Assembly: GCA_945877765.1 (NCBI GenBank)
Contig: CAMDWQ010000009.1
Span: 7,409-71,408 of the forward strand
Reading direction: 5' to 3'
From: Candidatus Omnitrophota bacterium
Lineage (GTDB): Bacteria > Omnitrophota > Gorgyraeia > 2-02-FULL-51-18
DNA: 64,000 nucleotides
In this document: positions 22,507 through 63,998 of the stretch, in pieces
Layout of the letters: every line of letters starts with the position of its first letter
Numbering within the stretch: position 1 is the first letter of the stretch
Notes under the pieces: model-generated
Database searches by the model: none
What the model was told of the DNA's origin: nothing
Seen by the model: the letters and a program-made list of their open reading frames with translations, nothing else
Program-made: the position numbers and the translations under genes

Positions 22507-22730
22507 TGATATTTTGATTTAATTCTGCTAAGTATTTTAAATAGTTACTTAGTGGGGGATTATGTATAAAATAAGTCGATTTTTAACTATTAAATCCCAA
22601 TTTATGCTATTTTAAAAGTTAATAGTGGGTTAAAATTCCCATACTAAGTTTACTTAATAACTATTATATATATTAAAAAATATGCAATTTTTTCAATTAT
22701 TAGGGTTGAATCGATTTTTCTATGGCTATT

Positions 22731-46296: not shown

Positions 46297-47397
46297 AGAG
46301 AGAAGCGGTTGGGCTAATTCTGGGTTTTCGAGCAAATTACCGTAATAAAAAACCACACAGCTGCGGGGCTTGGCTTCTTCACAGGCGCTGAATTGCTGTT
46401 GGAAAACTTCGGGCGTCTTCAAAAATTTGTAAGTACCGACCGCGATATTCACTTTTTTTAAATCCACGGTATTTCGAACAGCATCTTCTAGTTGTTTTTT
46501 AAACTCGTCTAAATTATTTCCGTAGCACATGAGCGTCACAAAATCGACGAGATTAGTCTGAAGCCACGCCCGCCAGTCCTGAAAAGATTCTAGCGACGCG
46601 CGTGAGTAAGACATAAGCCCCGTCGTAGAAACTTGAATATTAGGACGAATCGAGCGCGCTTTCCGGACAATACGGCGGACAAGACCCGTCACTTGCGCGT
46701 ATTTCCATTGTTTCCAGGCGGGGCTGTCTTCGCTGATTTGATAGATCCCCGTCGACTGCTTAAAACGATCCATGTTCCGCTGGGTGTAACCATAGGAGGG
46801 GTGAACATCCGGATAGCGGATGTAATCCAGTTGGATGCCATCCAATGCGGGATAGGCCCGCACGACTTCCCCCACAATCTTGGAAAGCGTATCCTGCACC
46901 CGCAAATCACCCGGCTCCAAAAAATATTGATTATCAATTTTGTAATCCGCGAGTGTCTTTTTTTCCTGGAGATTGCGCGTGAGAATCTCTGGGCCGTATT
47001 TTTTTAAAAGCGGCGCCTCCTCATTGGTGCTCAAGCTTAAAAGGTTCATCCAGGCATGGACTTGGATTCCGTGGGTATGTGCCTTTTTGATGAGTAACGA
47101 AAAAGGATCTTCACCGACTTTTTTAAAACAACTCTCGTAAGGCGTGGAATCCGCTAAGGCTGAGGGAAACCAAGCGCGGTTGGAACGATAAATTTGGACA
47201 AAAAGGACCTGAATCCGCGCCTTTTTGGCGAAATCAACCAGCACCTCGATCGACTGCCGGTCCGAAAGAACCAAAGGGTTCTCAATCGCCGAGACAAAAA
47301 GACCCCGGCGCGGAACTTCACTTCCCTGCGCCGGAGCCAGAAATAAAAATAGAAAGAAAAAAAGAAAAGCGAGGGTACTAGCGGCTGACTCTTTCAA
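46261..47397 (-). CDS. putative lipoprotein of the glycoside-hydrolase-like GHL10 (DUF187/YngK-like) family
   Basis: 378 aa with a hydrophobic signal peptide, and a TIM-barrel-like segment GLFVSAIEN...LFVQIY...HGIQVHAWMNL reminiscent of GHL10. The stop codon falls inside the REP array. Confidence 0.5.
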   Translation of the reverse strand: MKESAASTLAFLFFFLFLFLAPAQGSEVPRRGLFVSAIENPLVLSDRQSIEVLVDFAKKARIQVLFVQIYRSNRAWFPSALADSTPYESCFKKVGEDPFSLLIKKAHTHGIQVHAWMNLLSLSTNEEAPLLKKYGPEILTRNLQEKKTLADYKIDNQYFLEPGDLRVQDTLSKIVGEVVRAYPALDGIQLDYIRYPDVHPSYGYTQRNMDRFKQSTGIYQISEDSPAWKQWKYAQVTGLVRRIVRKARSIRPNIQVSTTGLMSYSRASLESFQDWRAWLQTNLVDFVTLMCYGNNLDEFKKQLEDAVRNTVDLKKVNIAVGTYKFLKTPEVFQQQFSACEEAKPRSCVVFYYGNLLENPELAQPLLSNVIPQRHSREL

Positions 47398-47653
47398 TCA
47401 TCGCCGCCTGCTTGTGGTCTTCCCCGAGCCAGATTCGTAATTTGTCGTTGCGTTTATAATCGCTGATCATGCCCTGTTTGACAACCACACGGTAATCGCG
47501 GTTACCGATCGTATTCTTGAGCACATTGCGGATCACCAACGTATTTTTGGTGTAATCAATCGTCCCCACGCGGCCCTCCAAATCCGGTTCATCCGCCCAG
47601 GCAAAAGACGTCAAAAGTAAAAACCCCGCCAAGAATAATAAATATTTTTTCAT
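47378..47653 (-). CDS. small secreted protein, hypothetical
   Basis: About 91 aa starting at MKKYLLFLAGFLLLTSFAWA (signal peptide). The upstream part of the ORF-track call overlaps the GT2 gene. Confidence 0.3.
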   Translation of the reverse strand: MKKYLLFLAGFLLLTSFAWADEPDLEGRVGTIDYTKNTLVIRNVLKNTIGNRDYRVVVKQGMISDYKRNDKLRIWLGEDHKQAAMIERVSR

Positions 47654-48600
47654 CGGGCTTCCTTTATTTTGGGTAAAAATAAAATGTTCTTGAGCACAAT
47701 ATAGCACAAAAAGCGGACGAGCGCGAAGGGTCGGGTCAGCGTTTCCAGCAGCACCGTCCACTGCCGCTCATCTAGTTTTTTCCCAAACGCCAAAGCTTTG
47801 GAAAGCTGTCTTTGTCTTTCTGCCTTTTGTCCCGGGTTACCTTCGCTCCTATTTTTTATCTCCAAGGACTGATGGAGCCTGAGCAAAAACCCGTGCAATT
47901 TCCACAAAACTTTTTTATCCGCGCGGCCAAAACCATGACTTAATCGGTGAATACGCCAACGGCACAAAAACTCAGGGATCATGTAAAAGGACGTCCGCAA
48001 ACTCAGATGAGCCAGGATCCACCAGTCCTTGTTGGAACGCATTGTTTCTAGCGGCGGTATTCCGTCCAAGAGTTCTTTTCGAACAATAAAATGAGAAAAC
48101 GAAGCCACAGGATTGCGTTTTAAAAAAACAGAAAAAAGATCCACCGGACGCCCCATCGGGATCCCCGCCGCATTCGCCAACTCATAAATTTTCCAATAGA
48201 TGACTCCTCGAAACCAACCAAAGGGCCTGTAGCGGGAAAAAACCACACCGACTTCCTGATTTTCTTCCAAGATTTTCATTTTTTTTTCAAGATTCCGCGG
48301 ATGCCAAACGTCATCCGACTCCAAAAAAGCCACCACTTCTCCACGGGCGTGCTTTAAAGCTTCCCGGTAGGTGCTAGCCAAGCCAAGATTTCGGCAGCCC
48401 TCATGCGTCAAGACGCGCATCTTGCCAGGATACTGTGATGCGTAGTCTCTTAAAAAATCCAGCGATCCGTCGGTAGAGCCGTCATCGACAACAAGCAGTT
48501 CAAAATCGCGGTACGTCTGGGCCATCACCGAGTCGAGTGCTTGGCCAACATAGCGGCGGTAATTATAGCTAGGTAGGATGACGCTGACAGACGGGTTCAT
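47650..48600 (-). CDS. family-2 glycosyltransferase
   Basis: VSVILPSYNYRRYVGQALDSVMAQTYRDFELLVVDDGSTDGS and a DxD-type ESDD motif. Confidence 0.85.
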   Translation of the reverse strand: MNPSVSVILPSYNYRRYVGQALDSVMAQTYRDFELLVVDDGSTDGSLDFLRDYASQYPGKMRVLTHEGCRNLGLASTYREALKHARGEVVAFLESDDVWHPRNLEKKMKILEENQEVGVVFSRYRPFGWFRGVIYWKIYELANAAGIPMGRPVDLFSVFLKRNPVASFSHFIVRKELLDGIPPLETMRSNKDWWILAHLSLRTSFYMIPEFLCRWRIHRLSHGFGRADKKVLWKLHGFLLRLHQSLEIKNRSEGNPGQKAERQRQLSKALAFGKKLDERQWTVLLETLTRPFALVRFLCYIVLKNILFLPKIKEAR

Positions 48601-49607
48601 CGGAAAGCCATGCCTCTTCTCTTAAAAAATCCGGATAAGGAAAAAATAAAGCCCGACATCATCCCCAAAAACATCACTTGGGAATCCACTAATTTTAAAA
48701 CCGCCGCTTTTATCTGAAATACAACTCCCCGCCCCCGCATCCCTTCCAAAAATGGCAGCCAATGAATATAAAATAAGCTGACAAGAATAAACGCCGCCCC
48801 CGCCAAGGGCAATGAATGAAAAACCAGAGCACCCAAACCGCAAATAAACGCCCCAGCCGCCCCCGCCATCGCCGCCGTCTGACCCAGTGACGCGTGAGAA
48901 AAGCTCCTTTTCTTACAAATCTGCCCAAATCCCCCATAGCGTACAAACATCAGCGAAAATAAAAACGGAATGACGAAATCATTTTTTAAAAGGCTTCTCA
49001 TCGTGTACTTTTTTAAATGATCCACTTCCAGTGTGTGGTCCAGGATCACTTTTTTATCACGTCGGGCAAACCGAATCCCCGCCTCAGAGTCACTCACCAG
49101 ACTCCCAAAAGGCTGGGTGATAGGTCTAAAAAAAATCATTTCCTCTCTTCGGACAGCCCACAGCGATCCATAGAGAAAAGAGGACTCCGAGGGCTGCTTC
49201 AAAAAAACATGTCGCATGTAGAAATTTTTGTAATCCGAAAAAAAGGAGCCTGTGGGTTTGTCCGAGGAAAGGATTCCGGTCAAAGCATGAACCGCAGGGT
49301 CCTGAAAATTTCTTAGAATTTTTTCAAAAGTATCGGGGCGCACACACACATCCGCATCAACAAAAACTAAAATGGGATACCGCGCGGCCCTCGCCCCCGC
49401 AAATCGCGGCTCCATGGGTCCTGAGCGCAGCGCCACGGGAATAATTTGACAGGGAAAACCCGCGGCGATTTCACGCGTTGCATCCGTCGAAGCATCATCG
49501 ACAACTAGGACTTCCCCCGGAGCGGCCGAGGAAGCAAAGATTGCCTCAAGACTTGCTTTCATTGTCCCCTGCATATTTCGGGCTGGGATGATGACTGAAA
49601 AACTCAT
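48597..49607 (-). CDS. family-2 glycosyltransferase with C-terminal TM helices
   Basis: FSVIIPARNMQGTMKASLEAIFASSAAPGEVLVVDDASTDAT, a DAD motif and about 4 C-terminal TM helices. Confidence 0.8.
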   Translation of the reverse strand: MSFSVIIPARNMQGTMKASLEAIFASSAAPGEVLVVDDASTDATREIAAGFPCQIIPVALRSGPMEPRFAGARAARYPILVFVDADVCVRPDTFEKILRNFQDPAVHALTGILSSDKPTGSFFSDYKNFYMRHVFLKQPSESSFLYGSLWAVRREEMIFFRPITQPFGSLVSDSEAGIRFARRDKKVILDHTLEVDHLKKYTMRSLLKNDFVIPFLFSLMFVRYGGFGQICKKRSFSHASLGQTAAMAGAAGAFICGLGALVFHSLPLAGAAFILVSLFYIHWLPFLEGMRGRGVVFQIKAAVLKLVDSQVMFLGMMSGFIFSLSGFFKRRGMAFR

Positions 49608-51022
49608 GCGCTTTCCGCCGTCCATTCTTCCAGGTGCGCCTTTTCGGTATTGACGCTCCAGACATCCTGCGGATTTTTCCCCATATAATTACGTGCCGCA
49701 TATAAACCAGTCAAAATCGCGTGATCGCTGTTGTCATAGCGAAAAAGCCCCTCGCGGCCCATGAGACTTAAGTTTTCGATGTTCTCCACAAAATTGCGGA
49801 TGGTGTTTAGATGTTTTTGGTACTCAGGGCTGTAAACCGGATAGACGTTGGCAATTTTTACCACAAATCCTTTGACGTACCGCGCGGGGGCAACCAGCCC
49901 CATCTCTTCAAGTTCCATCAGAGCCAATTGAATCATATCCTCATTTGAAAAATTCCAAAGGCCCTCGCCTTCATTCACAAAATATTCGACCCCCAGCGTC
50001 GTCCAGTCGGGGTTTGAGACCATCTCCATGCTCCAATTTTTATAATTTTGAATGCGGCCGGCCCTGATGCCGGGAGAATGCACGTAAATCCAGTTGTCCG
50101 GGAAAATATTTTTTTGGTCAAAAATGAGATTCACGACCATGAAACTGCGAAATTTGAGTTGACGCGAAGCTTCGAGCACTTCTGGGGGAGGCAGCGGCTT
50201 CATTTTTTGAATTAAAAGGGTGATGGGGATGCTTGAAAAAAGATGACTGACGGGATTGACGCGCAATTCCCCGCCTGGGCCCGCGGCGGTCACCTCCGTG
50301 ATCCGGTTGCCTTCCCGGCGAATCTCCTCGGCGCGGCAATTCATGAGAAATTCGGTGCCGCTTTCTTCACATAAGTTTTTCCACCGGTCGCAAAAAAGTC
50401 CGGGACCTAGCCGCGGATACAGAAATTCTTCGCTGAGAGTTTTGGGGGTGGGGCCGAAACTGCCAAAAGCTTTAAGAACCGCTTTCCCCAAAGAGAGACT
50501 TTGAATTCTCTGCACGGCCCAATCACTGGAAAGCTCACGGCAGGGAATCCCCCACACCTTTTCGGTATAGGTTTTAAAAAAAATCTCATACAGTCTTTTA
50601 CCAAAGCGGCGAGTCATCCACCCTTCGAAATGGCTGTCATCCCCAGCCTTTGACCACCGGGAGAATAAATAACTGGCTAGACAGCGGACGCTCTCGGTAA
50701 ATCCTAACGTTGTCGTGGCATTTAAAAGATTGAGCGGGTAATTAAAAAACCGGTCGCGGTAATAGATCCGTGATTTACGCTTAACCAGCAAAAGATCCGG
50801 CCCCAGAATACGGCGCCAGAGCTCGTTGACTTCACGGCTTTTGGAAATAAAACGATGACCGCCGATATCAAACAACGAGCCTTCAAATTCAAGCGTGCGG
50901 CACAACCCACCCGCCTGCTCGTTTTTGTCCATTACCAGGGGTTGGATGCCGTTGGCACAAAGTTCGTGAGCACAGGCCAACCCTGCCGGACCTGCACCTA
51001 AGATTAAAGGATTGGATTTCAA
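49604..51022 (-). CDS. FAD/NAD(P)-binding oxidoreductase (amine-oxidase/phytoene-desaturase-like fold)
   Basis: N-terminal dinucleotide motif ILGAGPAGLACAHEL...VMDKNEQAGGLCRT in a 472-aa protein. Confidence 0.7.
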   Translation of the reverse strand: MKSNPLILGAGPAGLACAHELCANGIQPLVMDKNEQAGGLCRTLEFEGSLFDIGGHRFISKSREVNELWRRILGPDLLLVKRKSRIYYRDRFFNYPLNLLNATTTLGFTESVRCLASYLFSRWSKAGDDSHFEGWMTRRFGKRLYEIFFKTYTEKVWGIPCRELSSDWAVQRIQSLSLGKAVLKAFGSFGPTPKTLSEEFLYPRLGPGLFCDRWKNLCEESGTEFLMNCRAEEIRREGNRITEVTAAGPGGELRVNPVSHLFSSIPITLLIQKMKPLPPPEVLEASRQLKFRSFMVVNLIFDQKNIFPDNWIYVHSPGIRAGRIQNYKNWSMEMVSNPDWTTLGVEYFVNEGEGLWNFSNEDMIQLALMELEEMGLVAPARYVKGFVVKIANVYPVYSPEYQKHLNTIRNFVENIENLSLMGREGLFRYDNSDHAILTGLYAARNYMGKNPQDVWSVNTEKAHLEEWTAESA

Positions 51023-51089: not shown

Positions 51090-54000
51090 TTAGGCGGCTT
51101 GCTCGGCCATGCGGGCGGTCATGTTGTAGGCACTGACGATATTAGCCACATTCAAGCAGTGAATGGCCAGTCGTTGGACGATGTCGGGGGTGAGTCCCAC
51201 GCCTTGCACGAAATTCAAGAATTCGACTGGGGCCGCGGCGGAGACGTCAGACCCCAGGGCCTGGAAAATTTCTCTTAACCGTTGCTGGTTACGTGGATGC
51301 TTTATTCCCTCTTTTCCTATTTCCGCTTCCGCGATTAATCCATGAATCAAAGCATCGAAATTGAGAAAACCTCTTTGGGTGGGGACCTGAATAATCAGAT
51401 GGAGCCTGTCTTGGCTAAGAATACGAATATTTTTAGGGTCCATCGCCTCCAACGAAGCGCTCTTCATCGATTTAATATTTGATGGAGCTTTTTTCAAAAT
51501 AAATGTCTGTGAAGGATACAGCGCCTCTGCGCGGTCCATAATTTTTTTCCTATTTTTTGGCGTGATTCCAACGATCTGAAAATAGACGTTGAATTTAGTT
51601 GCCTTGTGCATGGCGTTCACGAGCGCGTGGGTAAAAAGCTCATCCGTGGGTAATTTTTTTTGACTCATAAGTCCTTTGAGATTGATAATCAAAAATTTAG
51701 ACTCAGGCGTGATTAGAGATTCGGTGAGACTCCGGACTTTGTTGGTTTGCTCGGCGAGTTTGTTCTTTAGCTCCAGCTGAGAAAGAAGCTCGTCTTGGGA
51801 GAGCATCAACGTCGCGTCTATATTTTGACCTTTACGATTTCTTGTGATGATGGCTTTGTAATTCCTCAAGACAACCTCCATAGAGTCTTCAAAATAAAGA
51901 CGGAGAATCTTGGCATCATGGTCCAAAGTGAATCGCAGGGTCTGGTCTCCTATCACGAGGCTTCCTTCCACAAAATCACGGCGAGCACTAATAATGGCTT
52001 GGGCGGCGAAAACGAGCCTGTCGTGACGTTCAATGGTGCCGTTGGCATAAATGGTTGGTGCGAATTGCATGGTCGCCTTTAGCGCCCCCAAATGACGGGT
52101 AGGAGCTTCGGATGCCAACCGTGCCGCGTCTCGATATTCAACATACGATGATGTGCCTATTCCCCTGCCTTCAAATGTTAAAGGTATGCTGTGATATTCC
52201 CAAAATGAGAAATCCTTTACCTCTTTATTTACAAACGTGCCACGGGGATGATACTCCTCTATTTCTGGAAAAGCGGTATCTAGGACTTCCATCTTCTGCA
52301 AATGTCTCTCCTGGCGGTTGAACTGAATTCTGATGACTATCGGGAGTCTATAATTCCTCTTATTCCCATGGTCTAAAGCATTTCTTAACATCTCTTTGAG
52401 GATATAAGTTGCCCCGAAAGCGGAGTGGTCACCCGGGTTTTCTTTTATCAAAATATCTTCTATTGCCCTTGCAAGATAATAGAAGCGCGAAGACTCCGCA
52501 TCGTGCCCACTAAGCCTAGAGCGATCTTCTATGTGAGAAAGATCAATCCATAGCGGCTGCTCATTTTTAATGGCATCACTTAAAGCCTCTTTATCGACCG
52601 GCGATGACAGATCTATTTTTATTAATTTCGTATTTCTTGCCACATATTCTAATAGTGCCTTAGAGGACGTCTGTTCTTCCCTCTTTTTTTTGTCATACTC
52701 CACTAGCCTTGTTTGAATACTAAAATTACTTTTTGTCAAAAGTTTATCCCGCACGATGATTGGAAGCTGTACGCTGTCATCAGGCACTACAAAACGTAGA
52801 TTAACCTTACCCCCTTCAATCTTCGTAAAAAGCATTGTGATTTGTTCTAAAATAGGGGTCTTTCCCCGGATTGCGATTGTATCTTTTGGGGTGGGGTGAT
52901 TTTCAAGAAGTATCCGTGAAACTTTATTCCAATCAGGACTTTCTGGTCCATTGGAAGTCTGAACCACAATGTAATTACCAGCCGCATTGATCTTGTCCAC
53001 ACGGACCTGCACCAAGTTGTGACTTTCTTGATCATAGACCCATATTAACTCGCCTTCATTGGCAGGCATCCAAATCGGTGTGGTTGCCAACCGGGCACCA
53101 TTCGGATCCCCGCTGAGGCTTTGCTCATCGGTTGCTGCAACACGTGACCCTTGGCCTGCGGGGCTCTCTCGGGATAGATGTTCTAGCGCAACAGCGACGT
53201 CGTTCGTCACAACAACAGCTGCTGTTGGGTATAACTTAAGAAAGTTTTTAAGTAATGTTGCTCTTTCGTCGTCATCCGTAATTCGGTTGATCCTAGCCAA
53301 CTCTTGATTAGCTGCGGAAGAAACATCTGCCAAATCAGGGTAGCTAGGATACAGATCAATGCTGGTGATCGTACCTCCCAAATTTAGAAGTGTGGGCAAT
53401 AGCGGTGAATTTCTTCCTATGGATCCAACCTGAGCAGTTGACTTGCTAAGATTCGCAGATAGAGCCGCCTTTAATGCGTAGTGATACAACATTTTAAACA
53501 ATGCGTGTCCTTTATAATCATCCGATCTTGCTAGTGAGGCATTGCCCAATATTCTCTGCTGTTCATCCATAATGATTATTATCCCCACAAAATATGCTAT
53601 CAACTTTCCTTTATCATCACGAATCACAAAACTAATAGAACTAGGCCTACTAGCCAATTCTGCAATGCGTAAGGGTTCCATTCCCGTCGGCGGAAGACTC
53701 TGGATTTCTTCTGCTTTGAGAATATTTTTTCCCCCTACTCTCTCTAGGACCAAATCATGCTTTTCTCCATCTTTTACTATGCTAAATCGGTGAGGGAGTA
53801 GCCCTGTGAATGCATTGTCTATCAGAGATTGATCGTTCTGGAAACATATCATCTCAATCTCATTGACGTATTTCCTGAATTTATCACCGTAACCTGCATA
53901 CCTATCGTTATCTGCATACTTATAAAGAGCATCATTATCCGCTAAAAACCTTTCCATAATATTCAAGGCTGCATCTACATTCGTATTACCGATAGGGTAT

Positions 54001-57000
54001 CTAGCCACCAGACGGGTTGAAGAGCTACGATCAGGCAGAGCCATGATATTTCTCTGAATACTTAGATCAGCTATAACCCCATTGTCTTGGCTAATAAATA
54101 AACTCACCCCAAGATTTCTTTTAATTTTGCGTGCTATGGATACTATTCTTCCCGCCGGGTTCATGTCTGATATAGATTGATGATCGAAATTAACCAATCT
54201 GGCTGTTTCTTCCTCTGAGATTGCCAACCGCGCGCCGACCAAATCGTGTTGAGCGTCTTCCCCGTTTGTCCGAATCTTTTTGAGACTGGTCAGAAACAAA
54301 AATCTCTTCTCTGGTGGGATCGTACGCATCACTGATTCTGCGATAGACAACACTCTGGCTCGATAGTCACTATCCATGTCATTGAGCGCTAACAAAAGAC
54401 TATCCAAAACCACGGGTGTCCGATATTTAGCCAAATCATGAAGGCGTTGCCTCACCAATTCGGTCACGTGCAATTCATCCGGCCCGTGAGCTAATTCCTT
54501 TAATAGGTACAGCAATTCCCGTGGCTCAACATTCGATCTGAGCGAGTTGGACAGCCGCATCGACCGTGGTAATACTTGAATTAGCTGATAGTCTTCCAGG
54601 CTCCGGCCATTGGGGCTAGTTCGCATGCTTGAGTCGATTGTCCTTTGATTTATAAAAAAATCCTTGTTTTGGCCAAAGCCATAATTAGACTCATCCGCAT
54701 GGATCGTTTGCCAGGCTAGCAGGTATCCGCCCGTAAGAGGAATACTCTCATTCACCATTCGAAGCCTATCCCTCGTATCTTTCACCGGTCCCATGTCAGG
54801 CACGATCACCAGAGACGGCCTAGTCTCTTCCGAAGCATAAGACAGACCTCCGGGCTTGAGAAAATCAACAACCTCCACCGAAAACTGGGCCGGTGGAATT
54901 CCAAGCTCGACAGCCGCCCGATCAAGAAGTGCGGCCTTTTCCCGCTCCTCTGGAAGCAAAAGAAATCTTATGCTCTTTTCCGAAAGCGCAAGACCCAAAG
55001 CCAGTAAGCCAGCACCCTTGCCGCCGCCAAGAATTAGCACTTCTTTCGTTGTTGCTTCTGGTAATTTGAGAATAGTTTCCAATGCTTCTCCTCTTGAAAA
55101 GTTGGCATCGTCATCAAATTCGAATATTTCTAATTTGTCCACCCCAACCACTTTCCGAATTTTTTCAATATATTCTTTGCCAATCACATCTATAGGCTTC
55201 ATCACTTCTGCGACTTTTTTTAGATACTCAGCCATCATTGATTCACGTAATTCGTTGAGTCTCGCATCAAGACTTTCAATCCTCTGGACTATTTTTTTAG
55301 CTTTTGTGAGCACTTCAGCTTCATTTTGATATCTTTCAAGCTCAGGGATAGAATTTGCAATTTGAACTCCCTCTTCACGTGCCGCCGTAACCTGCTGGCC
55401 AAAAAGCAAAATATTTTGATTGGATACGTCACGAAGAGAGATCTGCTGCCAGCTTGAAAGATTACGTAACGCATCATTTTGTGAGGAAGTCATTCTTTCT
55501 AGATGACGGCTTGTAAGATGACTCACGAGCATGATGACTTCTGCTTTTACATCCTCCCATTGGGCTGTTTTAAACCAGTAAGCACGGCCAACTTTATAAT
55601 CTAAATGCCACTCAATCGTATCTAATAAATAAGCAAGAAAAACACTTGCTCTTAATGGAACTTCAAGCTCGTGGTTGACCGGTAATCCTCTGTCTTCAAC
55701 TGGAATTAAATAGTCAGCGTTCTTGACGGCAATAAAGTCACCGAATGCCGTTGGTTCATTCGCATAATAACGAATGGAAAAACCATTTCTCATAAAAGGA
55801 TCTGGGATTGACGTAGAAGTAACATAAGCGCCTTCAGGCTTAAGCATTTGCTTAATTGAGGCTACCCATATATCTAAAATCAAAAATTTCATCTCAACTA
55901 AAGGCAGTCCCGCGAAAGAAGGCAAGGTTTCATCTATAACACTATTGGACATAATCAAATCAAACGATCCAGTCATATCACTTAGCGAGGATTGAATAAA
56001 ATTTACTTTTAAGATAAGTGCTTTTTTTAAATCATCGGCACCCGCCCAAACTGAAAGTTCATTTCTCATGCCTTCAAACATCCCATCAGACAGGTCGATC
56101 ACCGTCAATGATTGCATCTTCGGTAATGCGATCAATATAGAAATGATTTCTTTAGCATTTTTACCAGGTCCTATAAGAAGAAGATCTCCCGTTTGGATAG
56201 GATGACGATAGGGCTCCTTAAGATCCGAAAGGAGGTTGGTAATCTGAAGCGCAAATGTATTTTCAAGGCTTTCTTCTTCCGCCAACCGCGCGCCACCCTT
56301 ATTCCGAATACTGGCTTGCTCACTCGACAAATCAAGATCCGCGCGAACAAAAAATTTATCGACAAGTGCTTCTACGACTAAATTTTCAGATTCAGAAAAC
56401 ACACCCCACTGGCTTCCACCAACAAAAGACTGTAAGAAAGGAAGTGATTTTGGAAACCAGACCGTTGCCTCTCCTGATGGGCTAACGATCATCTCAGGTG
56501 CTCCGCTATAGGAAATCTCTGTTATATCAACGGTTGATGGGTAAAGATTTCCATTGGGGTGAAAATGCATCCCAAATACCAACGGGTTATTCTTGGCCGG
56601 TTCGAAGAGGCAACCAATAAAATCACTTTCACTTCTAATCACCGTGCCCTTCCACTCGCCTCTTAGATTGAAATAAAAGTTGGTTTGAGCGGATGTTGCT
56701 GTTTCCGTTTCATCAACCATATCCAAAGCCCACGATTGTGCATTGAAATAAAATGAGCTTCTTCGCTCCAGAGGAAGGTGATTCACAGCATCACCAAGTC
56801 CGTAATGCCTAAACAAATCTCCGGGTGTGGTTTCGATCCCTGGGTTTTCAGGTATTAGATCTAATCCAAAAAATTGCTCCTGAGAGATACTGATCTTTTC
56901 TAACATAGTAGGTATTGAGTATTTCATTATGAGCTCATCTCTATAATTCTTAAAATATCCATTACGAAGATTGAAAGTAAAAATACGCGCACTCTTGTCA

Positions 57001-60000
57001 TCAAGACTCAATCGTGCTTTATCATCTATCCTATAGATCTCATACAAAGAATTAAAACTCAGAAAGCTGAGTTGTCTCCGCTGGGCATTAATAGCGTCAA
57101 TAATGGGGGTATGACGAAGAATAAGTTCTCTTAATCTGTTAACCTTCTCTTGCGAATCACTTATCAACAAAACTGACTCTGTCTCTTCTGTGTCGATTGG
57201 AATCGCAGAGGCCAGCCGGGCGCCTATATCACCGGACACAGTTGAGTGGAGACCTGATTCGGCATCGCTGTCTTTTTTCCTGAGGATCTCATAAATCACC
57301 CAGTCTTGATAATTTCTAAAAGAGATACGCTCTCTTTGGTGAACCTCAAAACCGCCAAATGCTTGGGTCAGTGACTCTAAGGTAGGGATGGCATACTCAA
57401 TGAATTTGAAATCGGTTAGAACCTCTTCATGAGAAGTATCCAGCGTCGTAATAATAATCCGTCCATTTTTAGCCAAGTGCCCAAGGATGTTTGGGATCAA
57501 TTTATCCGGATTCATGTGTCCATAAGAATCTGCAAGCAGAATAACGTCAAACGGATCCCCTAAATCAAAGGGATCTTCGGCGCTCTGCTGTAGGACGGGG
57601 ACGCGTCTGATTTGCGTAAAAAGCGCTTGCCGCCTATTCAGCTCGATTGCATGCACCACATGCCCTGGCGGCTCTTCCATCAATTCTTTTTCGATAATGC
57701 CGGGGCCGGATCCTATGGATAATATTCTGAGTTTTTTATTCTGCCCTGCAGTGATAATCGCCTTCAGCTTATCTCGATAGGATCTGTCTATGACCGATGG
57801 ACTAATTGCATCCCTATTGAAGAATGCTTTTCCATCAGAATTATACCGATTATATAATTCATTTTTGTTTGACGGTGATTCCGCCAACCGCGCGGCGACC
57901 TGATCCGTCAGCGCTTTCTGAGCCTCCAACACCCGGCGCAGCGTTTCCTTTAAATCAGGATTCATAGCGTCCGAGATCTGAGGGCTAAACATCCCCAACA
58001 CTCCCACTCGCTTGCCTTCGGAGTCATAGAAACGCAGTTTGGCAGTATCTACGATTATCGGCTTATCTCCGCTCTCGTTCCGCTCCGGTTTAAGGAGAGG
58101 TTCGCCACGTTCTTTTTGCAAAGCTTCCAAATCAACATCTGTGTATTGATTGGCTAGATCCAGTGGATTTTTTTCAACATAAGTTTTCCCGACCCAATCT
58201 TTTTTATCGCCATTGGTGCCATCCGACCTTCTCATCGCATCAAGAAAAGCCTGATTGATGTAAATAATGACTTGGCTTGAGGGATCCGCGAGTTCGTCAT
58301 AATAGGTGACGAAAACAGGGTGAGCTGCATCGTCAAATTGTTTGAAATCTGCTTTAAGCGGTGTCCCAAGCACGGGCTCCTTTTCTTTTTCTTTAATCCT
58401 CCTGAGAATATTAGCTTGATCCGTCTGACGCAACAACGCCTGCAGTTTCGGAATCCTATTCTTCCAAGCCACTGACCTCAGAAATGACGGCATATCCGAG
58501 TGAAAAAGACTTAACATCGCCTCGTAAATATACGGATCGCCCACCGTATACTCCGCGGCAAAATAGTTTCTAATGAACCCTCCGGGACTTTGTTCTCTCG
58601 AGTCCGCATCACCAAATTCATCAATTTTTTGGGCCAGAACATTCAATAATGGGGCCGGTGGGAAATCTATCGGTAGGATGACTGCAGATTCACCCGCAGC
58701 AGAGGCTTGGAAGGTTAGCTCGATGAAATCTCCAACGGTCTGCTGGTAATGAACAGATTTTGCTTGGACATCTTTTCTCTGTTTAAGAATTTTTAGAAAA
58801 GCTTCAATAAACGAGGCTCTGGTATCTAAATCATCATCTCGCAAGATTACATCTATATCTCTAGAGGCTCTGCTGACAGAGGGCGCATTGGCGATCCACT
58901 TCCACTCTCCTGTGTCATCCTTGCCGAACCCGCGCTCTTCCATATGGGCATACCCGGTACGCAAATATCTGGCACTTCCTCCGATCCGTGCGTGCTTATC
59001 AGCTTGTTGGATCAACTGCTCAAGAAGGCGTAGATTAATTTCCCTATTTTCGGGATCAAAAAGCCGCTCGTCCGTAGGTGAAAATGTTTCGCTTGCAGGC
59101 TTTCCGGATCGGCCGAAGGTGGGAGCGGTAGAGGCCAACCGCGCGGCGGAAGCACTAGAATTAAGATCTATCCCATGAATGGAAAATGTGGCTGTTGAAT
59201 TTGCGGCGTCTTCTTTGACGGTAATCGCACGGCCTAGGGCATTGGCACTGGTAGAAATTGGTGAATTGTTGACAAGGTCGACAACGGGTTTCTGCCGCTG
59301 GAACCATGGTTGATGCCAAGGACTAGTCACATCGACATTCAAAAGTCCCTGATCATTGGAATGAAATCGAAGTTGTATTCGTTCCTTTTTGCTCGAATGA
59401 CCAAGCGCAGCAGCCAAAAGCAACTCCAGCATTGTTTTTAGTTGCTTGAATTGACTTGGCTGACCATTGATGAGCATTGACTCCATCCCACCGTAGTCAA
59501 TGTCAATACGCCCCCGGTCTATTGGCTTAAGTCTTAAATCATCCTCAATTCTTGCAATTAGGCTAGCAAGCGTGATGGGCGAGCGCAGCTTCGATCTAAG
59601 CTCATTCAAGATAGGTTTATTTTTTTTATTTCTGATGGTTTTTAAAAAAAGTTTTATTTTTTTCTCGGACCTTGCCTTTTTAAAAATTTCCTCTATTTTT
59701 TTTAATTCAGTTGACGTTGGATGATCAAATATTTCTTCGTAAAGCGGCATAGCGTCTTGAATATTATTCGCTAAGCCCGCCGCTTCTCCGGTCAATTGAT
59801 CGATATAAAATTCAAATGGCGTCAAATAACTGTCCTTTTGCACATCCACCTCTTGGGTGGGGTATATAAATCCGTCATCAATAATCCGAATATTTTTTAA
59901 ATCAACGCGCCGCCCATCGTACACCCCGGAATTGATCAAGTGCGGGTCCGCATCAAGAAACCCTTTTTCCATCAACGATCTCTGGTGTTGGCCAAAGAGA

Positions 60001-63000
60001 CGGATGTCTTGAGCGCTAATTTTATTTTTAAGAAGATTATTCAAAATACCTACGCTTCTTTGAACAACCACACGTCGTGTGCCTCCGTCCATTTGCCAAT
60101 CCAAATCATAAGAAATGAGCGTTATCTTTTTTTGTCGTAAACTGGCGGCAAGCTCTTTTCTGGATTTGCCATTCAAAGGAAATGAGATGTAAGAGAATCC
60201 CCCGATTTTCCTAAATTCCTCTGCCTTGATGTCCTTCCATTCGATTTTTACCACGAAAGATCTGCCTTTTTCACCTTGAAGAGATTTAGCGGCAAAAACA
60301 ATGTAATCCCCGCCCTGCCCAAGGTAGTTGAGCCCTTCAGGCACTCTGGAAAGAGATACTTTTTTTTGTTTTCTTGGTGCAACAAGAACCTCTCCAAACC
60401 ATCTGCGAAGCATCGCGGTATCTACACCAGCAAGAGCTTTCTGCAGCCCTTCGATGATTGCTTGGGCTTGCCTTGGGTCAGAGGGGGCATTGGCTGGATC
60501 AGACCAACTTACCTCCGCCAACCTCGCCCCGGCGCCCTTTTCATTTCCACCAAACTTTTTAGGAATGGGGACCGAGACCATTCGCCTTTTTTTTGGATCT
60601 TTTCCAACCCTGTAGGTGTGTTCAAAAGATCTTACTGTCGGTTTCTGTCCATCATGATCCACGCGAAGACTATAAATACCTCGGTTTTGGTTGACCGCAC
60701 TGGCATCTAGGACAAACTGCAGGTATTGATTGCCTTTCAAGGATACGTTATTCAGAATTGCGGCCATCGCTGAGGACGTTCTTTTTGGGTTAATGAACAG
60801 GTGTAAATTTTGGGCAGGCACTATTTTGTGTAAAACTCCTGGCAGAACGTCTCCGGAAACCACGATTGGAGAGAGCTTCTTATTTTCTCTTCTTAGTGAT
60901 TTGACAAACTTGCTTAAATGCTCAAAACTTTGCTTTTTCAGCCGCACCATATCTCTAGAAGCACCGTTAAGTTTCATTTTTTTCGGATCTGTTCTGTCTG
61001 ACCACACATCCTCCTGGTACCAATCAGAGCCCTTAACATCTCCTCTTGGGCTATTGGCATGTATCAGCACGATATCGGCTTCATCGTCAGAGGTTGTCTC
61101 AAAACGGACTATTGTCGATAAATGCATCAGCACTTCCCGCAGTTGATTTTGCAGACGCTCCCGTGGTAGCCCTCGATGCATTGATTCGTTTTGAATCAAC
61201 AATTCTAGATCCACTCCTTGATTGTGCTCCTTATTATTATCAGATATGTCCATTTTACCAACAGGTTCATTCCCGCTAACATGCGCCGCCTCATGATCCG
61301 CTAAGACCATATGAACATTTTCAGGAGCTTGGTTCATCAGGTACAAAATAGCCAAATGCGCCCTGAAGCTATTCCAGTAGTTGGCGTCGGTCATACGAAT
61401 GGAGGGGTGCAGAATATCGCCCACGAAAAATATTTTTGCCTTACCCGATAAGATGTCGTCCAAGATTGGGATGATTCTGGCTTTAAGACTCTGCGATTGG
61501 CCATGAATATCCCCGATAAATAGGGAATACTCGGAATCAGCCTGAGAGACACTTCTTAGGGCTTTGCCTTGGTGTTGGGTCACACTTGGAAACTCACCAA
61601 TTTCAATGGCTTCGGCAGTGGTTGCCGCGTCTTTTAAAATTTGAAGGGCTTTTTTAAGATCAAGTGAGGAGTGGCCGTTGGCATCCAATTTTTCAGGCGT
61701 GAGAAGTAGGAGGAGTTCATTTCTTGTTTCATCCCTATCTGCCAACCGAGTCCCGGAAGAACGAGCAGTCAAAATTGCCCTGCTCTTGAGAATGGGCTGT
61801 TCAAGGTCATTCAAGTCGAGCTCATAATCATAGCCAAGGCGGTCGTGAAGAAGGCGCACCATGCGGCCAGCAATCGAGAACCTAGATTTAAGCCATACAA
61901 AATGGTCCCCACGCGCCTTACGCCGGGCCTCGATGGTCTTGTCCGCGTGTACGTAAAGCGTGCGCGCCATGGGACGCAGTGATCGAAAAAGCGGTGCCGA
62001 AGAGGAACCCACCACCACGAAGAACGTATCCCGATTAGCCTCCAAAGAAATAGTGTGGATCCCATTCAATTCGTCATGGAGTGGCGCGGCATCAATCTGG
62101 ATAGTTTTCCATCCGAAATTGGTAAGCCTCTTCATCCGGAAGATTATTTCTCGCACAGTAGACATTTGCATGTCGATATGAATGATAAAGTCTTCAAAAA
62201 AACCTAGCGGCATGTAATAAATACCGGGGAAATTTAAAATAAAAAACTGAAAAAGCGAAAAAATCTGCCACACGAAGCCCTTGTGGTACAACCAGTCCGT
62301 CTCAATGACACGCGCAGGCACAAACTTGACATTCTCTCCTTCTTTGCCAAAATGATCGGCAAGATTCTTGGCAAAGGTCGACTTTCCTGAGCCTGGAACA
62401 CCGTCAATGATCAAGAGCCGGTAAACACCATTCCTAACCTCCTCAGGCGTCGGGCGAAGAGCATCGTAAATAGCCGGATAGGTGTCTGCTACAAACTCGA
62501 ACTTCTCCTGTTGTTTCACACCTTGGAATTGTGAAGCGGTGTTTTCCGCCAGCCGGGCGCCCTCGCTATGTGATTTTAAGGCGATCTGGGCCGCTCTTTC
62601 AATAGCGCCTCTACCCAACCTGGAGTACCGTTCTTGTTTTTCTTCATCTTCAGTTGCAGAAAAAAGAATTCCATATATTTGACCTAAGGCCAACAGAATG
62701 GGTCTCGAATTTTGAGGATCAATTCCGACTGCTTTTTCGTAAGCAGTGATGGCCTCCTCAAAGCGCCCTTGAGCAGCATAAACGTTGCCTAAGACTCCCC
62801 AACCACCGTGTGATAGTGGATTCCATTCCAAGCCGATGTTAAGAAGCATTTCGGCTGAGGCATACACTTTTGCCTCATAATACCGCAAGGCATTTTCAAA
62901 AAAAAGGATATGCGCAAAAGAAGCGCGCTCCACTCTCCAAAAATCTTCAAACAACTCAATAAAATATCCCACATCTTTAAACTTCAAATCATTATCGATG

Positions 63001-63998
63001 ACTTCCGTATGATCTAGAATACCCGCAATGTTGCTTGCCAAAAATGCGGACCCCTTCATATTGTCAGGAATATCTATCCGAGGGTCGTCCAAAACTCTAT
63101 CCATTTGAATCATCGAATCACTTGAACCTTTAAAGACCCCTGTTTGTTCTAATATCGCCCGCAAAGTGCGGTAATGCATCGCACCGCCGATATGAAGCAG
63201 CCGAAGCCAGCTGAGTCCCGGAGGTAACGCCAGAGGATCCGTATGACTGACTATCTGGAAAAGCTTCTGGCCCATCATCTTCCCTTGCACCACATCTCCC
63301 AAGAGAATATGAATCTGCGTCAGATAGCGCGAAACAATGATCGTATTTAGCAGCTCCTCATCCAATCCTATGGCTTTTAAATCCTTGCCGTACCTTTTTT
63401 TAATCCCTTCAATGACCTCTCGGTAGGATGGGTCCGGAGAATAATACAACACGAGCGGTTCGTGAATAGTGGGGCTATCATCAGAGTCCACCCAAAGAAT
63501 TTTATTTTCCTTCAAATCATTTATTTGTGAAGGACTCAGCGACAAACTTTCAAAAAGATCCTCTGCATTCATATCCTGTGCGTCCGGATCCTTATCCCCC
63601 CACCGAGCCATCAGCGGATTCTCTCCGTACAAAAGTATTCTTTCTGTTTTTTGGGACGCTGCTTCAAAATCCACGCCCATAAAATAACTACGCATCCGAT
63701 GCATTGCGTATCGCGTTGCCCTTGAAGCATTGACTCCATACAAGCGAGGCCAATCGCTTTCAGTCGAAAAAGGCATCATTTTATTTGCTTCTAAAAGAAT
63801 TGTTCCCCAGAGCTCATTTTTCTGAGCAACTGCAGACCCGCTCCCATCTTGCGCGAAACGCTTCACTGCTAGAGGGGGCAGCTCAATGCTCGCGGCGAAT
63901 ACACCTTGAAATAAATCGTTTAGTTCCTTATCGGTGAGCGCTCTTAAACCATGATGTTCGCCAACTGCATGATAAACATTGGCGAGAGTAACTCCCAC
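51090..63998 (-). CDS. giant multidomain protein of at least 4302 aa, N-terminus outside the window (reading frame open to the window edge; first in-window codon is GTG)
   Basis: Recognisable modules from the N-terminus: TPR repeats (AITAYEKAVGIDPQN); a P-loop GVPGSGKST; a calcineurin-like phosphoesterase (FIGDIHGQ...FVGDILH...LADHEAAH); a class-I SAM-MTase (ILSIGSGPGII...VILLADSYGHM...NGRIIITT); a second Rossmann/MTase-like domain (LLLIGPGKNAKEI...FDLIMSN...LKPEGAY); a third (VLILGGGKGAGLLAL...LKPGG); a GHKL/RsbW-like N-box (LKEMLRNALDHG); and at least 10 occurrences of the [GA]ARLA[SE] signature. Confidence 0.8.
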   Translation of the reverse strand: MGVTLANVYHAVGEHHGLRALTDKELNDLFQGVFAASIELPPLAVKRFAQDGSGSAVAQKNELWGTILLEANKMMPFSTESDWPRLYGVNASRATRYAMHRMRSYFMGVDFEAASQKTERILLYGENPLMARWGDKDPDAQDMNAEDLFESLSLSPSQINDLKENKILWVDSDDSPTIHEPLVLYYSPDPSYREVIEGIKKRYGKDLKAIGLDEELLNTIIVSRYLTQIHILLGDVVQGKMMGQKLFQIVSHTDPLALPPGLSWLRLLHIGGAMHYRTLRAILEQTGVFKGSSDSMIQMDRVLDDPRIDIPDNMKGSAFLASNIAGILDHTEVIDNDLKFKDVGYFIELFEDFWRVERASFAHILFFENALRYYEAKVYASAEMLLNIGLEWNPLSHGGWGVLGNVYAAQGRFEEAITAYEKAVGIDPQNSRPILLALGQIYGILFSATEDEEKQERYSRLGRGAIERAAQIALKSHSEGARLAENTASQFQGVKQQEKFEFVADTYPAIYDALRPTPEEVRNGVYRLLIIDGVPGSGKSTFAKNLADHFGKEGENVKFVPARVIETDWLYHKGFVWQIFSLFQFFILNFPGIYYMPLGFFEDFIIHIDMQMSTVREIIFRMKRLTNFGWKTIQIDAAPLHDELNGIHTISLEANRDTFFVVVGSSSAPLFRSLRPMARTLYVHADKTIEARRKARGDHFVWLKSRFSIAGRMVRLLHDRLGYDYELDLNDLEQPILKSRAILTARSSGTRLADRDETRNELLLLLTPEKLDANGHSSLDLKKALQILKDAATTAEAIEIGEFPSVTQHQGKALRSVSQADSEYSLFIGDIHGQSQSLKARIIPILDDILSGKAKIFFVGDILHPSIRMTDANYWNSFRAHLAILYLMNQAPENVHMVLADHEAAHVSGNEPVGKMDISDNNKEHNQGVDLELLIQNESMHRGLPRERLQNQLREVLMHLSTIVRFETTSDDEADIVLIHANSPRGDVKGSDWYQEDVWSDRTDPKKMKLNGASRDMVRLKKQSFEHLSKFVKSLRRENKKLSPIVVSGDVLPGVLHKIVPAQNLHLFINPKRTSSAMAAILNNVSLKGNQYLQFVLDASAVNQNRGIYSLRVDHDGQKPTVRSFEHTYRVGKDPKKRRMVSVPIPKKFGGNEKGAGARLAEVSWSDPANAPSDPRQAQAIIEGLQKALAGVDTAMLRRWFGEVLVAPRKQKKVSLSRVPEGLNYLGQGGDYIVFAAKSLQGEKGRSFVVKIEWKDIKAEEFRKIGGFSYISFPLNGKSRKELAASLRQKKITLISYDLDWQMDGGTRRVVVQRSVGILNNLLKNKISAQDIRLFGQHQRSLMEKGFLDADPHLINSGVYDGRRVDLKNIRIIDDGFIYPTQEVDVQKDSYLTPFEFYIDQLTGEAAGLANNIQDAMPLYEEIFDHPTSTELKKIEEIFKKARSEKKIKLFLKTIRNKKNKPILNELRSKLRSPITLASLIARIEDDLRLKPIDRGRIDIDYGGMESMLINGQPSQFKQLKTMLELLLAAALGHSSKKERIQLRFHSNDQGLLNVDVTSPWHQPWFQRQKPVVDLVNNSPISTSANALGRAITVKEDAANSTATFSIHGIDLNSSASAARLASTAPTFGRSGKPASETFSPTDERLFDPENREINLRLLEQLIQQADKHARIGGSARYLRTGYAHMEERGFGKDDTGEWKWIANAPSVSRASRDIDVILRDDDLDTRASFIEAFLKILKQRKDVQAKSVHYQQTVGDFIELTFQASAAGESAVILPIDFPPAPLLNVLAQKIDEFGDADSREQSPGGFIRNYFAAEYTVGDPYIYEAMLSLFHSDMPSFLRSVAWKNRIPKLQALLRQTDQANILRRIKEKEKEPVLGTPLKADFKQFDDAAHPVFVTYYDELADPSSQVIIYINQAFLDAMRRSDGTNGDKKDWVGKTYVEKNPLDLANQYTDVDLEALQKERGEPLLKPERNESGDKPIIVDTAKLRFYDSEGKRVGVLGMFSPQISDAMNPDLKETLRRVLEAQKALTDQVAARLAESPSNKNELYNRYNSDGKAFFNRDAISPSVIDRSYRDKLKAIITAGQNKKLRILSIGSGPGIIEKELMEEPPGHVVHAIELNRRQALFTQIRRVPVLQQSAEDPFDLGDPFDVILLADSYGHMNPDKLIPNILGHLAKNGRIIITTLDTSHEEVLTDFKFIEYAIPTLESLTQAFGGFEVHQRERISFRNYQDWVIYEILRKKDSDAESGLHSTVSGDIGARLASAIPIDTEETESVLLISDSQEKVNRLRELILRHTPIIDAINAQRRQLSFLSFNSLYEIYRIDDKARLSLDDKSARIFTFNLRNGYFKNYRDELIMKYSIPTMLEKISISQEQFFGLDLIPENPGIETTPGDLFRHYGLGDAVNHLPLERRSSFYFNAQSWALDMVDETETATSAQTNFYFNLRGEWKGTVIRSESDFIGCLFEPAKNNPLVFGMHFHPNGNLYPSTVDITEISYSGAPEMIVSPSGEATVWFPKSLPFLQSFVGGSQWGVFSESENLVVEALVDKFFVRADLDLSSEQASIRNKGGARLAEEESLENTFALQITNLLSDLKEPYRHPIQTGDLLLIGPGKNAKEIISILIALPKMQSLTVIDLSDGMFEGMRNELSVWAGADDLKKALILKVNFIQSSLSDMTGSFDLIMSNSVIDETLPSFAGLPLVEMKFLILDIWVASIKQMLKPEGAYVTSTSIPDPFMRNGFSIRYYANEPTAFGDFIAVKNADYLIPVEDRGLPVNHELEVPLRASVFLAYLLDTIEWHLDYKVGRAYWFKTAQWEDVKAEVIMLVSHLTSRHLERMTSSQNDALRNLSSWQQISLRDVSNQNILLFGQQVTAAREEGVQIANSIPELERYQNEAEVLTKAKKIVQRIESLDARLNELRESMMAEYLKKVAEVMKPIDVIGKEYIEKIRKVVGVDKLEIFEFDDDANFSRGEALETILKLPEATTKEVLILGGGKGAGLLALGLALSEKSIRFLLLPEEREKAALLDRAAVELGIPPAQFSVEVVDFLKPGGLSYASEETRPSLVIVPDMGPVKDTRDRLRMVNESIPLTGGYLLAWQTIHADESNYGFGQNKDFFINQRTIDSSMRTSPNGRSLEDYQLIQVLPRSMRLSNSLRSNVEPRELLYLLKELAHGPDELHVTELVRQRLHDLAKYRTPVVLDSLLLALNDMDSDYRARVLSIAESVMRTIPPEKRFLFLTSLKKIRTNGEDAQHDLVGARLAISEEETARLVNFDHQSISDMNPAGRIVSIARKIKRNLGVSLFISQDNGVIADLSIQRNIMALPDRSSSTRLVARYPIGNTNVDAALNIMERFLADNDALYKYADNDRYAGYGDKFRKYVNEIEMICFQNDQSLIDNAFTGLLPHRFSIVKDGEKHDLVLERVGGKNILKAEEIQSLPPTGMEPLRIAELASRPSSISFVIRDDKGKLIAYFVGIIIIMDEQQRILGNASLARSDDYKGHALFKMLYHYALKAALSANLSKSTAQVGSIGRNSPLLPTLLNLGGTITSIDLYPSYPDLADVSSAANQELARINRITDDDERATLLKNFLKLYPTAAVVVTNDVAVALEHLSRESPAGQGSRVAATDEQSLSGDPNGARLATTPIWMPANEGELIWVYDQESHNLVQVRVDKINAAGNYIVVQTSNGPESPDWNKVSRILLENHPTPKDTIAIRGKTPILEQITMLFTKIEGGKVNLRFVVPDDSVQLPIIVRDKLLTKSNFSIQTRLVEYDKKKREEQTSSKALLEYVARNTKLIKIDLSSPVDKEALSDAIKNEQPLWIDLSHIEDRSRLSGHDAESSRFYYLARAIEDILIKENPGDHSAFGATYILKEMLRNALDHGNKRNYRLPIVIRIQFNRQERHLQKMEVLDTAFPEIEEYHPRGTFVNKEVKDFSFWEYHSIPLTFEGRGIGTSSYVEYRDAARLASEAPTRHLGALKATMQFAPTIYANGTIERHDRLVFAAQAIISARRDFVEGSLVIGDQTLRFTLDHDAKILRLYFEDSMEVVLRNYKAIITRNRKGQNIDATLMLSQDELLSQLELKNKLAEQTNKVRSLTESLITPESKFLIINLKGLMSQKKLPTDELFTHALVNAMHKATKFNVYFQIVGITPKNRKKIMDRAEALYPSQTFILKKAPSNIKSMKSASLEAMDPKNIRILSQDRLHLIIQVPTQRGFLNFDALIHGLIAEAEIGKEGIKHPRNQQRLREIFQALGSDVSAAAPVEFLNFVQGVGLTPDIVQRLAIHCLNVANIVSAYNMTARMAEQAA

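Follow-up and report, generated by a model that had tools for sequence, protein, structure and literature searches.

A GARLA junction motif punctuates giant modular proteins of Omnitrophota and Planctomycetia and may mark sites of polyprotein processing

We analysed a 64,000-nucleotide (nt) stretch of a Candidatus Omnitrophota genome (assembly GCA_945877765.1, contig CAMDWQ010000009.1; hereafter the window), one end of which is occupied by a giant open reading frame (ORF) on the minus strand (51090..63998). The ORF encodes the C-terminal 4302 amino acids (aa) of a protein that continues beyond the window end, with no upstream stop. An identical ENA contig (ERZ27280294:k141_787946) carries at least 5489 aa of the same gene, which still reaches the contig end. 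The 4302 aa contain 3 Cys and are divided into eleven segments by ten copies of a five-residue sequence, most commonly GARLA. We regard the consensus [G/A]-A-R-[L, rarely F/M]-[A, rarely S/G/T], as read from the sequences, as a protein-level junction signal of giant modular proteins in Omnitrophota and Planctomycetia. The motif appears to be unreported.

The sites are numbered from the N-terminal side, and all are encoded on the minus strand. Site 1 (GARLA, residues 480-484, 62547-62561, GGC GCC CGG CTG GCG) comes after a TPR module with a Pfam core at residues 370-442 (62673..62891). Site 2 (GTRLA, 749-753, 61740-61754, GGG ACT CGG TTG GCA) comes after a P-loop kinase/NTPase-like module (residues 484-752) with the Walker A sequence GVPGSGKS at residues 533-540 (62379..62402, minus strand); the Pfam P-loop (Walker-A) stretch covers about residues 527-560. 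Sites 3 (GARLA, 1157-1161, 60516-60530, GGG GCG AGG TTG GCG) and 4 (AARLA, 1618-1622, 59133-59147, GCC GCG CGG TTG GCC) are followed by site 5 (AARLA, 2035-2039, 57882-57896), directly before a 224-aa methyltransferase module that ends at site 6 (GARLA, 2259-2263, 57210-57224). The class I S-adenosylmethionine (SAM) methyltransferase domain itself (Pfam, residues 2072-2203, 57390..57785, minus strand) lies wholly between these two sites. Sites 7 (GARLA, 2569-2573, 56280-56294, GGC GCG CGG TTG GCG) and 8 (GARLA, 3255-3259, 54222-54236, GGC GCG CGG TTG GCA) precede site 9 (GARLA, 3634-3638, 53085-53099), which has a weak variant, GSRVA, 17 aa upstream. Site 10 (AARLA, 3958-3962, 52113-52127) stands directly before a conserved C-terminal cap. 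An eleventh, motif-like copy, TARMAEQAA followed by the stop codon (51093-51119), forms the C-terminus of the protein and lies outside the region described in the initial annotation of this DNA.

That annotation had listed ten peptides, from SEGARLAEN to DAARLASE, as punctuation of the giant protein, and all ten were found in the single frame of this ORF. It had also asked whether amino acid composition could account for them, which it does not: [GA][AT]RLA occurs 10 times where 0.04 occurrences are expected by composition, and the maximum over 20000 shuffles was 2. No tetrapeptide is more frequent in the protein than ARLA, and a scan of all six frames of the 64-kb window identified no further [GA][AT]RLA.

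Most of the protein has no detectable relatives. Residues 440-1640 matched nothing, not even themselves, among 5.8 billion proteins, and residues 1-483 have no relative in GTDB genomes. Residues 3103-4302 gave 6 HMMER matches among 1.84 billion representatives. The sole module with detectable homologues is the C-terminal cap (C-cap), the last ~320 residues (about 3980-4302, 51093..52061, minus strand), with homologues at 25-35% identity in four proteins: P0124 (locus L011), P0125 (locus L008), P0126 (locus L009) and L010. Their hosts are two Omnitrophota metagenome-assembled genomes (MAGs) and one Planctomycetia MAG; a scan of JGI metagenomes gave one locus, the source of P0124, and a C-cap profile search of a word-indexed database returned P0125 as its sole match. 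All five C-caps terminate in [GT][AN]-R-M-A-[ESA]-Q-[AS]-A-COOH. In three independent comparisons (window with P0124, L010 with P0124, window with L008) the homology begins at a motif or within ~20 residues past it.

Other giant proteins are punctuated in the same way: those of three MAGs, two from Omnitrophota and one from Planctomycetia, and that of a syntenic relative. L008, from an Omnitrophota MAG, is a complete protein of 3489 aa with four GARLA and two GARLG. L010, from the Planctomycetia MAG, is 3644 aa or longer and contains twelve G[AS]RL[AST] sites, plus GARFA directly before its C-cap. P0124 has two sites, GARLS and, immediately ahead of the C-cap, GARLA. The syntenic relative, L005 (NCBI GCA_964503175.1), carries a flanking amine oxidase 68% identical to that of the window and, at the equivalent position, a giant ORF of at least 1296 aa (L005:2-3892) that does not resemble the window protein in sequence; it contains TAARLASA and GGGARLAAG, separated by 469 residues. 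Motif matches number 12 in L010 (0.08 expected), 6 in L008 (0.07), 2 in L005 (0.07) and 2 in P0124 (0.015), so that enrichment is about 100-fold or more in each of the five motif-bearing giants. Background ORFs of the loci yielded 3 loose matches in 76,540 residues. The modules of the window protein resemble neither one another nor those of the other giants, and the motif is nonetheless kept. Because L005 has other modules and a non-homologous C-terminus at the same chromosomal position, we consider the giant locus hypervariable.

L009 (Omnitrophota MAG contig JACPAX010000040.1, 4865-10957; 2030 aa) contains no ARLA. It has GSRFS at residue 555 and GIRFS at residue 963, the second ~27 aa past a pfkB domain, which suggests that it carries a G-x-R-F-S variant of the motif. 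An ASRFI is located after its glucosamine-6-P isomerase domain.

L008 and L009, the two complete examples, both begin with a Sec-type signal peptide (ending ...FEQFAFA before FP in L008, and ...CEQLALA before SP in L009) and both have an N-terminal cap (N-cap) and the C-cap, with unrelated interiors. The N-cap is ~600 aa long and 36% identical between the two (L008:521-2650; L009:4865-6500). From these two examples we read the family architecture as a signal peptide and N-cap, then hypervariable, unrelated, enzyme-sized modules, then the C-cap. Invariant N-cap motifs are YL(I/L)QD.HTN, FLEAG, GG(F/Y)H.PNL, GISY and HETNQKRYEKLLLS, and the domain is split by a long helical insert. The series YLIQDAHTN ... 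FLEAG ... GGYHSPNL ... GISY is reminiscent of TraB/GumN/TIKI metalloproteases, a resemblance that Pfam and PDB did not confirm and that we do not use. Neither cap matched a Pfam family or a PDB structure, even with the insert removed. An AlphaFold model of the C-cap from a four-sequence alignment had a predicted local distance difference test score (pLDDT) of 46.8, and the Foldseek result obtained with it was meaningless. The sole Cys within the window C-cap, C4281, is not conserved among the homologues, whereas S106, K140, D158 and H170 (C-cap numbering) are invariant.

The motif sits in linkers. Pfam identified three domains in the window protein (TPR, P-loop and methyltransferase), each inside one segment, and searches of NCBIfam, PADLOC and PDB sequences with the window protein added nothing to these. 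No Pfam domain contains a motif site, and in L010 an FHA domain ends 9 aa ahead of a site. Intersite segments are enzyme-sized, at 224-686 aa, a wider range than the 250-600 residues first given for the spacing. Segment-versus-segment comparison detected no mutual similarity among the eleven segments. We compared flanks and hydrophilicity over 28 sites in five proteins. The flanks (10-15 residues per side) have mean Kyte-Doolittle values of -0.80 and -0.99, against -0.37 at random positions (standard deviation 0.17). They are hydrophilic, not uniformly acidic or of low complexity as had been described. The suggestion that each site opens a shared docking or linker domain was not borne out: conservation across the 28 sites ends at the five residues, and in the window protein flanks of 45-55 residues around each ARLA are alike in the five-residue core alone. 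For the methyltransferase module and its two junctions, single-sequence AlphaFold prediction reached a pLDDT of 35.

We tentatively favour the view that the motif is a site-specific endoproteolytic processing site that would release the modules as separate proteins, as in polyprotein maturation. Cleavage, the bond cut and the existence of a cognate protease are what we infer from the anatomy of the sites: a consensus confined to linkers, unrelated enzyme-sized modules on either side, a small residue after a hydrophobic one, and occasional tandem sites. Leu is invariably followed by A, S, G or T and gives way to F or M alone; judged by sequence, such a pattern is that of protease sites with a hydrophobic P1 and a small P1'. 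Double sites 14-27 aa apart occur inside single linkers of L010 and L008. The cut would probably fall between Leu and the small residue; alternatively, a cut after Arg would leave Leu or Phe at the new N-terminus. We propose that the giant polypeptide may be exported via a Sec-type signal peptide, as predicted from L008 and L009, that an endoprotease would then cut each linker between Leu and the small residue to free enzyme-sized modules, and that the 15-nt sequence encoding the motif could double as an in-frame joint at which modules are gained, lost or exchanged. Signal peptidase I was considered as the enzyme and rejected, as Arg would sit at -3, at odds with the known A-x-A rule.

The closest working analogue, by comparison of architectures, is the MARTX toxin. 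MARTX toxins (PMC2900308; PMC5218395) are very large polypeptides in which conserved N- and C-terminal regions enclose a variable centre of unrelated modules; they contain few cysteines and vary in module content between close relatives, all of which resembles the proteins described here. Sites of the MARTX cysteine protease domain (CPD) follow the pattern 'small-Leu-small' in unstructured inter-effector segments (PMC2900308). In the GARLA proteins, too, the linkers between modules carry a brief conserved element in which Leu precedes a small residue and at which cleavage would be predicted from sequence. They differ from MARTX in having an invariant Arg, not a small residue, before Leu, and Pfam and NCBIfam searches identified no RTX/hemolysin-type repeats in the 4302 aa of the window protein or in the complete L008 and L009. 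No Peptidase_C80 CPD match was found in the same sequences, a scan outside which at least 1187 N-terminal aa of the window protein lie. The homologues L008 and L009 have Sec signal peptides, and the neighbouring genes are housekeeping or amine-oxidase/GT2 genes, not those of a type I secretion system (T1SS). The lack of RTX repeats, C80 domain and T1SS context, with the Sec signal peptides of the homologues, excludes membership of the MARTX family. Activation by inositol hexakisphosphate (InsP6) is implausible, because the hosts are Omnitrophota and Planctomycetia and not pathogens of eukaryotes.

Several observations weigh against processing. Pfam and NCBIfam scans found no protease domain in the 4302 aa of the window protein, in complete L008 and L009, or in adjoining genes. 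The Arg at P2 departs from the MARTX CPD consensus. L009 has both caps yet only divergent variants of the motif. The C-cap accompanies the motif in 4 of 5 proteins and is absent from L005, whose giant has the motif and a non-homologous C-terminus, so the C-cap cannot be an obligatory protease acting in cis, and its candidacy as a cis protease is weakened. Finally, the signal peptide and N-cap are known from the homologues alone, because the N-terminus of the window protein lies beyond the window.

Linker position and strict conservation of five residues fit equally well with a short linear motif that is never cut. The pentapeptide would then bind a partner (one of the caps, an anchor in the membrane or at the cell surface, or an export or holdase chaperone) and so organise or escort the polypeptide module by module. 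The C-terminal GARMAxQAA-COOH tail resembles a terminal copy of such a ligand, and the failure to find a protease is as expected if nothing is cleaved. However, the restriction to A, S, G or T after Leu and the closely spaced tandem sites are more typical of scissile sites, and one would expect enzymes of cytosolic, free-standing type (methyltransferase, sugar kinase, P-loop kinase) to function on their own. We consider an uncleaved motif unlikely.

The codons at the motif are also constrained, which raises the question of a role in DNA. The initial annotation had noted shared codons at nine of the ten sites, and the bias proved stronger than first claimed: Arg is CGG at 9 of 10 sites, against 15.5% of the gene's remaining Arg codons (P=4.5e-7). 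The Leu codon is TTG at 8 sites and CTG at 2, and CGGTTG encodes Arg-Leu at 7 of 10 motif sites and at 0 of 29 other Arg-Leu dipeptides of the gene. GCNCGGTTGGC occurs six times in the window, each time at a motif site, where 0.15 occurrences are expected. L010 is independent and has CGG at 10 of 10 sites (P=9e-9). GC content at the third position of the motif codons (GC3) is 0.86 in the window and 0.855 in L010, against 0.44-0.46 gene-wide, and the flanking twelve codons on either side do not depart from background. Thus, the synonymous bias is not regional, and regional GC-biased gene conversion was rejected. Nor does selection for preferred codons explain the Arg codon: in 35 other window genes Gly, Ala and Leu are most often encoded by GGC, GCG and TTG, respectively, but Arg by CGC (32%), with CGG at 18%.

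In L010 the motif coincides with the edges of a duplication. A cassette of 225 nt, encoding residues 129-203 and again 1350-1424 (L010:386-610 and 4049-4273), is ~90% identical at the nucleotide level; the match opens with the initial base of one motif and stops inside the next, and identity outside is ~25%. The duplicated unit is a 70-aa mini-module flanked by two motif copies; the two occurrences are 1221 residues apart and the neighbouring modules are unrelated.

These observations are what a primarily DNA-level element would produce, in which the ~15-nt direct repeat GGC GCG CGG TTG GCG is a joint for short-homology or site-specific recombination and GARLA merely its tolerated translation. 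Synonymous constraint is confined to the five codons, CGG is favoured in both genes without being the genome's preferred Arg codon, the cassette is bounded by motif copies, and the locus is hypervariable between relatives. L008 has its own codon dialect, with AGG at 4 of 6 sites, as concerted evolution predicts. However, the same gene also uses AGA TTA once and CTG, L005 uses CGT CTG, and Arg is CGC in L011 (CGC CTC is among the divergent codings). As L008, L005 and L011 keep the amino acids with different codons, selection acts on the peptide and the nucleotide level cannot be the whole story. Exchanges of Leu for Phe or Met likewise retain chemistry and not sequence, and no module that could be exchanged follows the terminal ARMA copy. 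The copies are all direct, none inverted, and 15 nt is short for RecA-dependent exchange. No recombinase or integrase was identified among neighbours of the giant genes in the window, L008, L009 and L010. We consider a primarily DNA-level role decidedly doubtful.

The earlier proposal that the motif acts in DNA or RNA to shuffle modules therefore stands in part. Synonymous constraint within the motif and the bounds of the L010 cassette speak for it, and the retention of the peptide with other codons and the lack of a shared RNA structure against it. Because synonymous positions are conserved and cassette breakpoints coincide with the motif, the 15 nt are probably also an in-frame joint. From the sequences, they would be a place where modules are gained, lost and exchanged, with L010 as the one clear case; this second role is supported by the duplicated cassette, by codon dialects that differ from gene to gene, and by cargo that is hypervariable between relatives. 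A bolder proposal joins the two functions, so that the same 15-nt, 5-aa element would be both the module-swap joint of giant genes and the protease site of an exported polyprotein, with lineage dialects (GARLA, G-x-R-F-S and the DGG discussed below) matched to different proteases. Taken as a whole, dialects included, we regard this combination as somewhat improbable. If true, the joint would be a bacterial analogue of exon shuffling and would explain hypervariable, 'sequence-unique' giant genes.

A third possibility is that the codons act during translation. Codons ending in G that need tRNAs with C34 (CGG/AGG and TTG/CTG) could slow the ribosome in linkers while a finished module folds or is handed over. 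Across 32 sites in five genes, the Arg codon is NGG at 28 and the third base of the Leu codon is G at 23, and the bias is restricted to the motif. However, CGG is not rare, either in the gene or in the genome sample, and the use of GGC, GCG and TTG, the commonest codons for their amino acids, is the opposite of slow-codon design. A fixed peptide would be needless for pausing, and no common mRNA structure was identified at the sites, where the minimum free energy (MFE) is slightly below controls and follows local GC. We give translational pausing little credence. Internal translation starts at the Leu codon were also rejected: the ten window sites have TTG or CTG, but CTT, CTC, CTA and TTA are used in L010 and L008. 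Chance, compositional bias or a hidden repeat domain can be dismissed as next to impossible, given the shuffle results, the mutual dissimilarity of segments and flanks, the background counts, and the recurrence of the motif in giants of independent genomes.

Other known systems share some of these features. Viral polyproteins, with picornavirus 3C and coronavirus Mpro sites as examples, comprise unrelated units in one ORF, parted by a short consensus with fixed P1 and P2 and a small P1'. The GARLA giants resemble them in having unrelated units in one ORF separated by a short consensus with a small residue after Leu. They differ in that the gene is cellular and chromosomal, amid housekeeping genes, that no protease module was recognised, and that the product is predicted from sequence to be exported. 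In cassette-shuffling systems (shufflons, integron cassettes and MARTX effector exchange) short nucleotide repeats also flank coding cassettes, and the single cassette duplication in L010 is bounded by repeats in this manner. Here, in contrast, no recombinase lies nearby, and the repeats are direct, ~15 nt long, translated, and conserved as peptide.

The 'multi-enzyme' and Archaeovorin/Dockerin-type giants of Omnitrophota (bioRxiv 10.64898/2026.06.07.730766) share the taxon, the C-cap relatives being in Omnitrophota MAGs. The architecture is also alike: many Pfam domains with no relation to each other (methyltransferase, HATPase-like, TPR, sugar kinases) make up one ORF of unique sequence with a signal peptide, the latter known here from the homologues. 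The catalogued proteins are over 10-147 thousand aa (kaa) long, whereas the window protein has at least 5489 aa and its homologues, at 2030-3644 aa, fall under the 10-kaa catalogue threshold. The preprint counts 5,761 proteins of 10 kaa or more. C39 peptidase domains are reported to be common in Omnitrophota giants (bioRxiv 10.1101/2023.11.21.568195; bioRxiv 10.64898/2026.06.07.730766). In contrast, the scanned part of the window protein has no C39 or S8 peptidase, SecA-like domain, dockerin or multiple transmembrane regions. Lacking a C39 match and with a single DGG, it does not belong with C39/double-glycine proteins.

One further protein from a representative library, P0127 (2751 aa), gave a weak match to window residues 3787-3909. 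It has no ARLA, and begins with a signal peptide of the same style (MKRIIAFLISFCLIFEQAGLA before Q). It is punctuated by x-D-G-G, with 9 DGG where 1.26 are expected and a maximum of 6 in 5000 shuffles. DGG resembles double-glycine sites and may be a double-glycine/C39-type dialect of the same punctuation principle. By analogy, this suggests that protease-site punctuation may be general in giant proteins.

Whether the giant ORFs of Omnitrophota and of the Planctomycetes-Verrucomicrobia-Chlamydiae (PVC) group yield single enormous proteins or many cut products is an explicitly open question. In the first large survey of Omnitrophota giants, the lack of known cleavage points prevented segmentation of the proteins (bioRxiv 10.1101/2023.11.21.568195). 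A 2026 survey, covering 916 long proteins, is silent on processing, proteolysis and recombination (bioRxiv 10.64898/2026.06.07.730766). GARLA punctuation, the N-cap and the C-cap are mentioned in neither, and we found no report of the motif or of bacterial polyprotein cleavage in these phyla. The motif gives concrete predicted cut points that can be used to segment giant proteins for structure and function prediction, and that permit targeted searches of metaproteomes for neo-termini and phylogenetic profiling of a cognate protease. Codon conservation together with a motif-bounded duplication offers a testable mechanism for the fast diversification of giant genes.

The surroundings of the giant gene are ordinary and chromosomal, with genes for an amine oxidase, two GT2 glycosyltransferases, GHL10, RecQ, FadA/FadB, AcrB, Dxs, RNase Y and others. 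No tRNAs were identified in the neighbourhood, which has no phage similarity; searches of IMG/VR and of plasmids and phages were empty. The gene has a GC content of 0.43-0.46, lower than the 0.47-0.50 of its neighbours, and AGA makes up 28% of its Arg codons against 10% in the 35 other window genes. No neighbouring genes are conserved around the giant genes across the loci compared.

The giant ORF ends directly upstream of a CrtI-like amine oxidase, which is in an operon (46261-51022) with the two GT2 glycosyltransferases. The closest source-named homologues of this flanking operon (amine oxidase) are from Omnitrophica/Omnitrophota or the PVC group. An operon comprising a TPR protein, the CrtI-like amine oxidase and two GT2 genes, with or without GHL10, is kept in Omnitrophota and PVC genomes (L005, L006, L007, L012, L013); the window operon lacks a separate TPR gene upstream of the amine oxidase. 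As Omnitrophota keep the operon without the giant gene, we consider the giant gene functionally independent of it, and a functional tie to the downstream amine-oxidase, GT2 and GHL10 genes was rejected. Between recQ and the GHL10 gene are three tandem intergenic 46-bp hairpin units (GTCATCCCCGAAATTGTTTATCGGGGATCAT...; 46050-46186). A related copy of this hairpin and a second hairpin (GATTCCCGATTAAAACTCTCGGGAATGACG) occur both there and at 22430-22510. These intergenic repeats are elements similar to repetitive extragenic palindromes (REP) and miniature inverted-repeat transposable elements (MITE).

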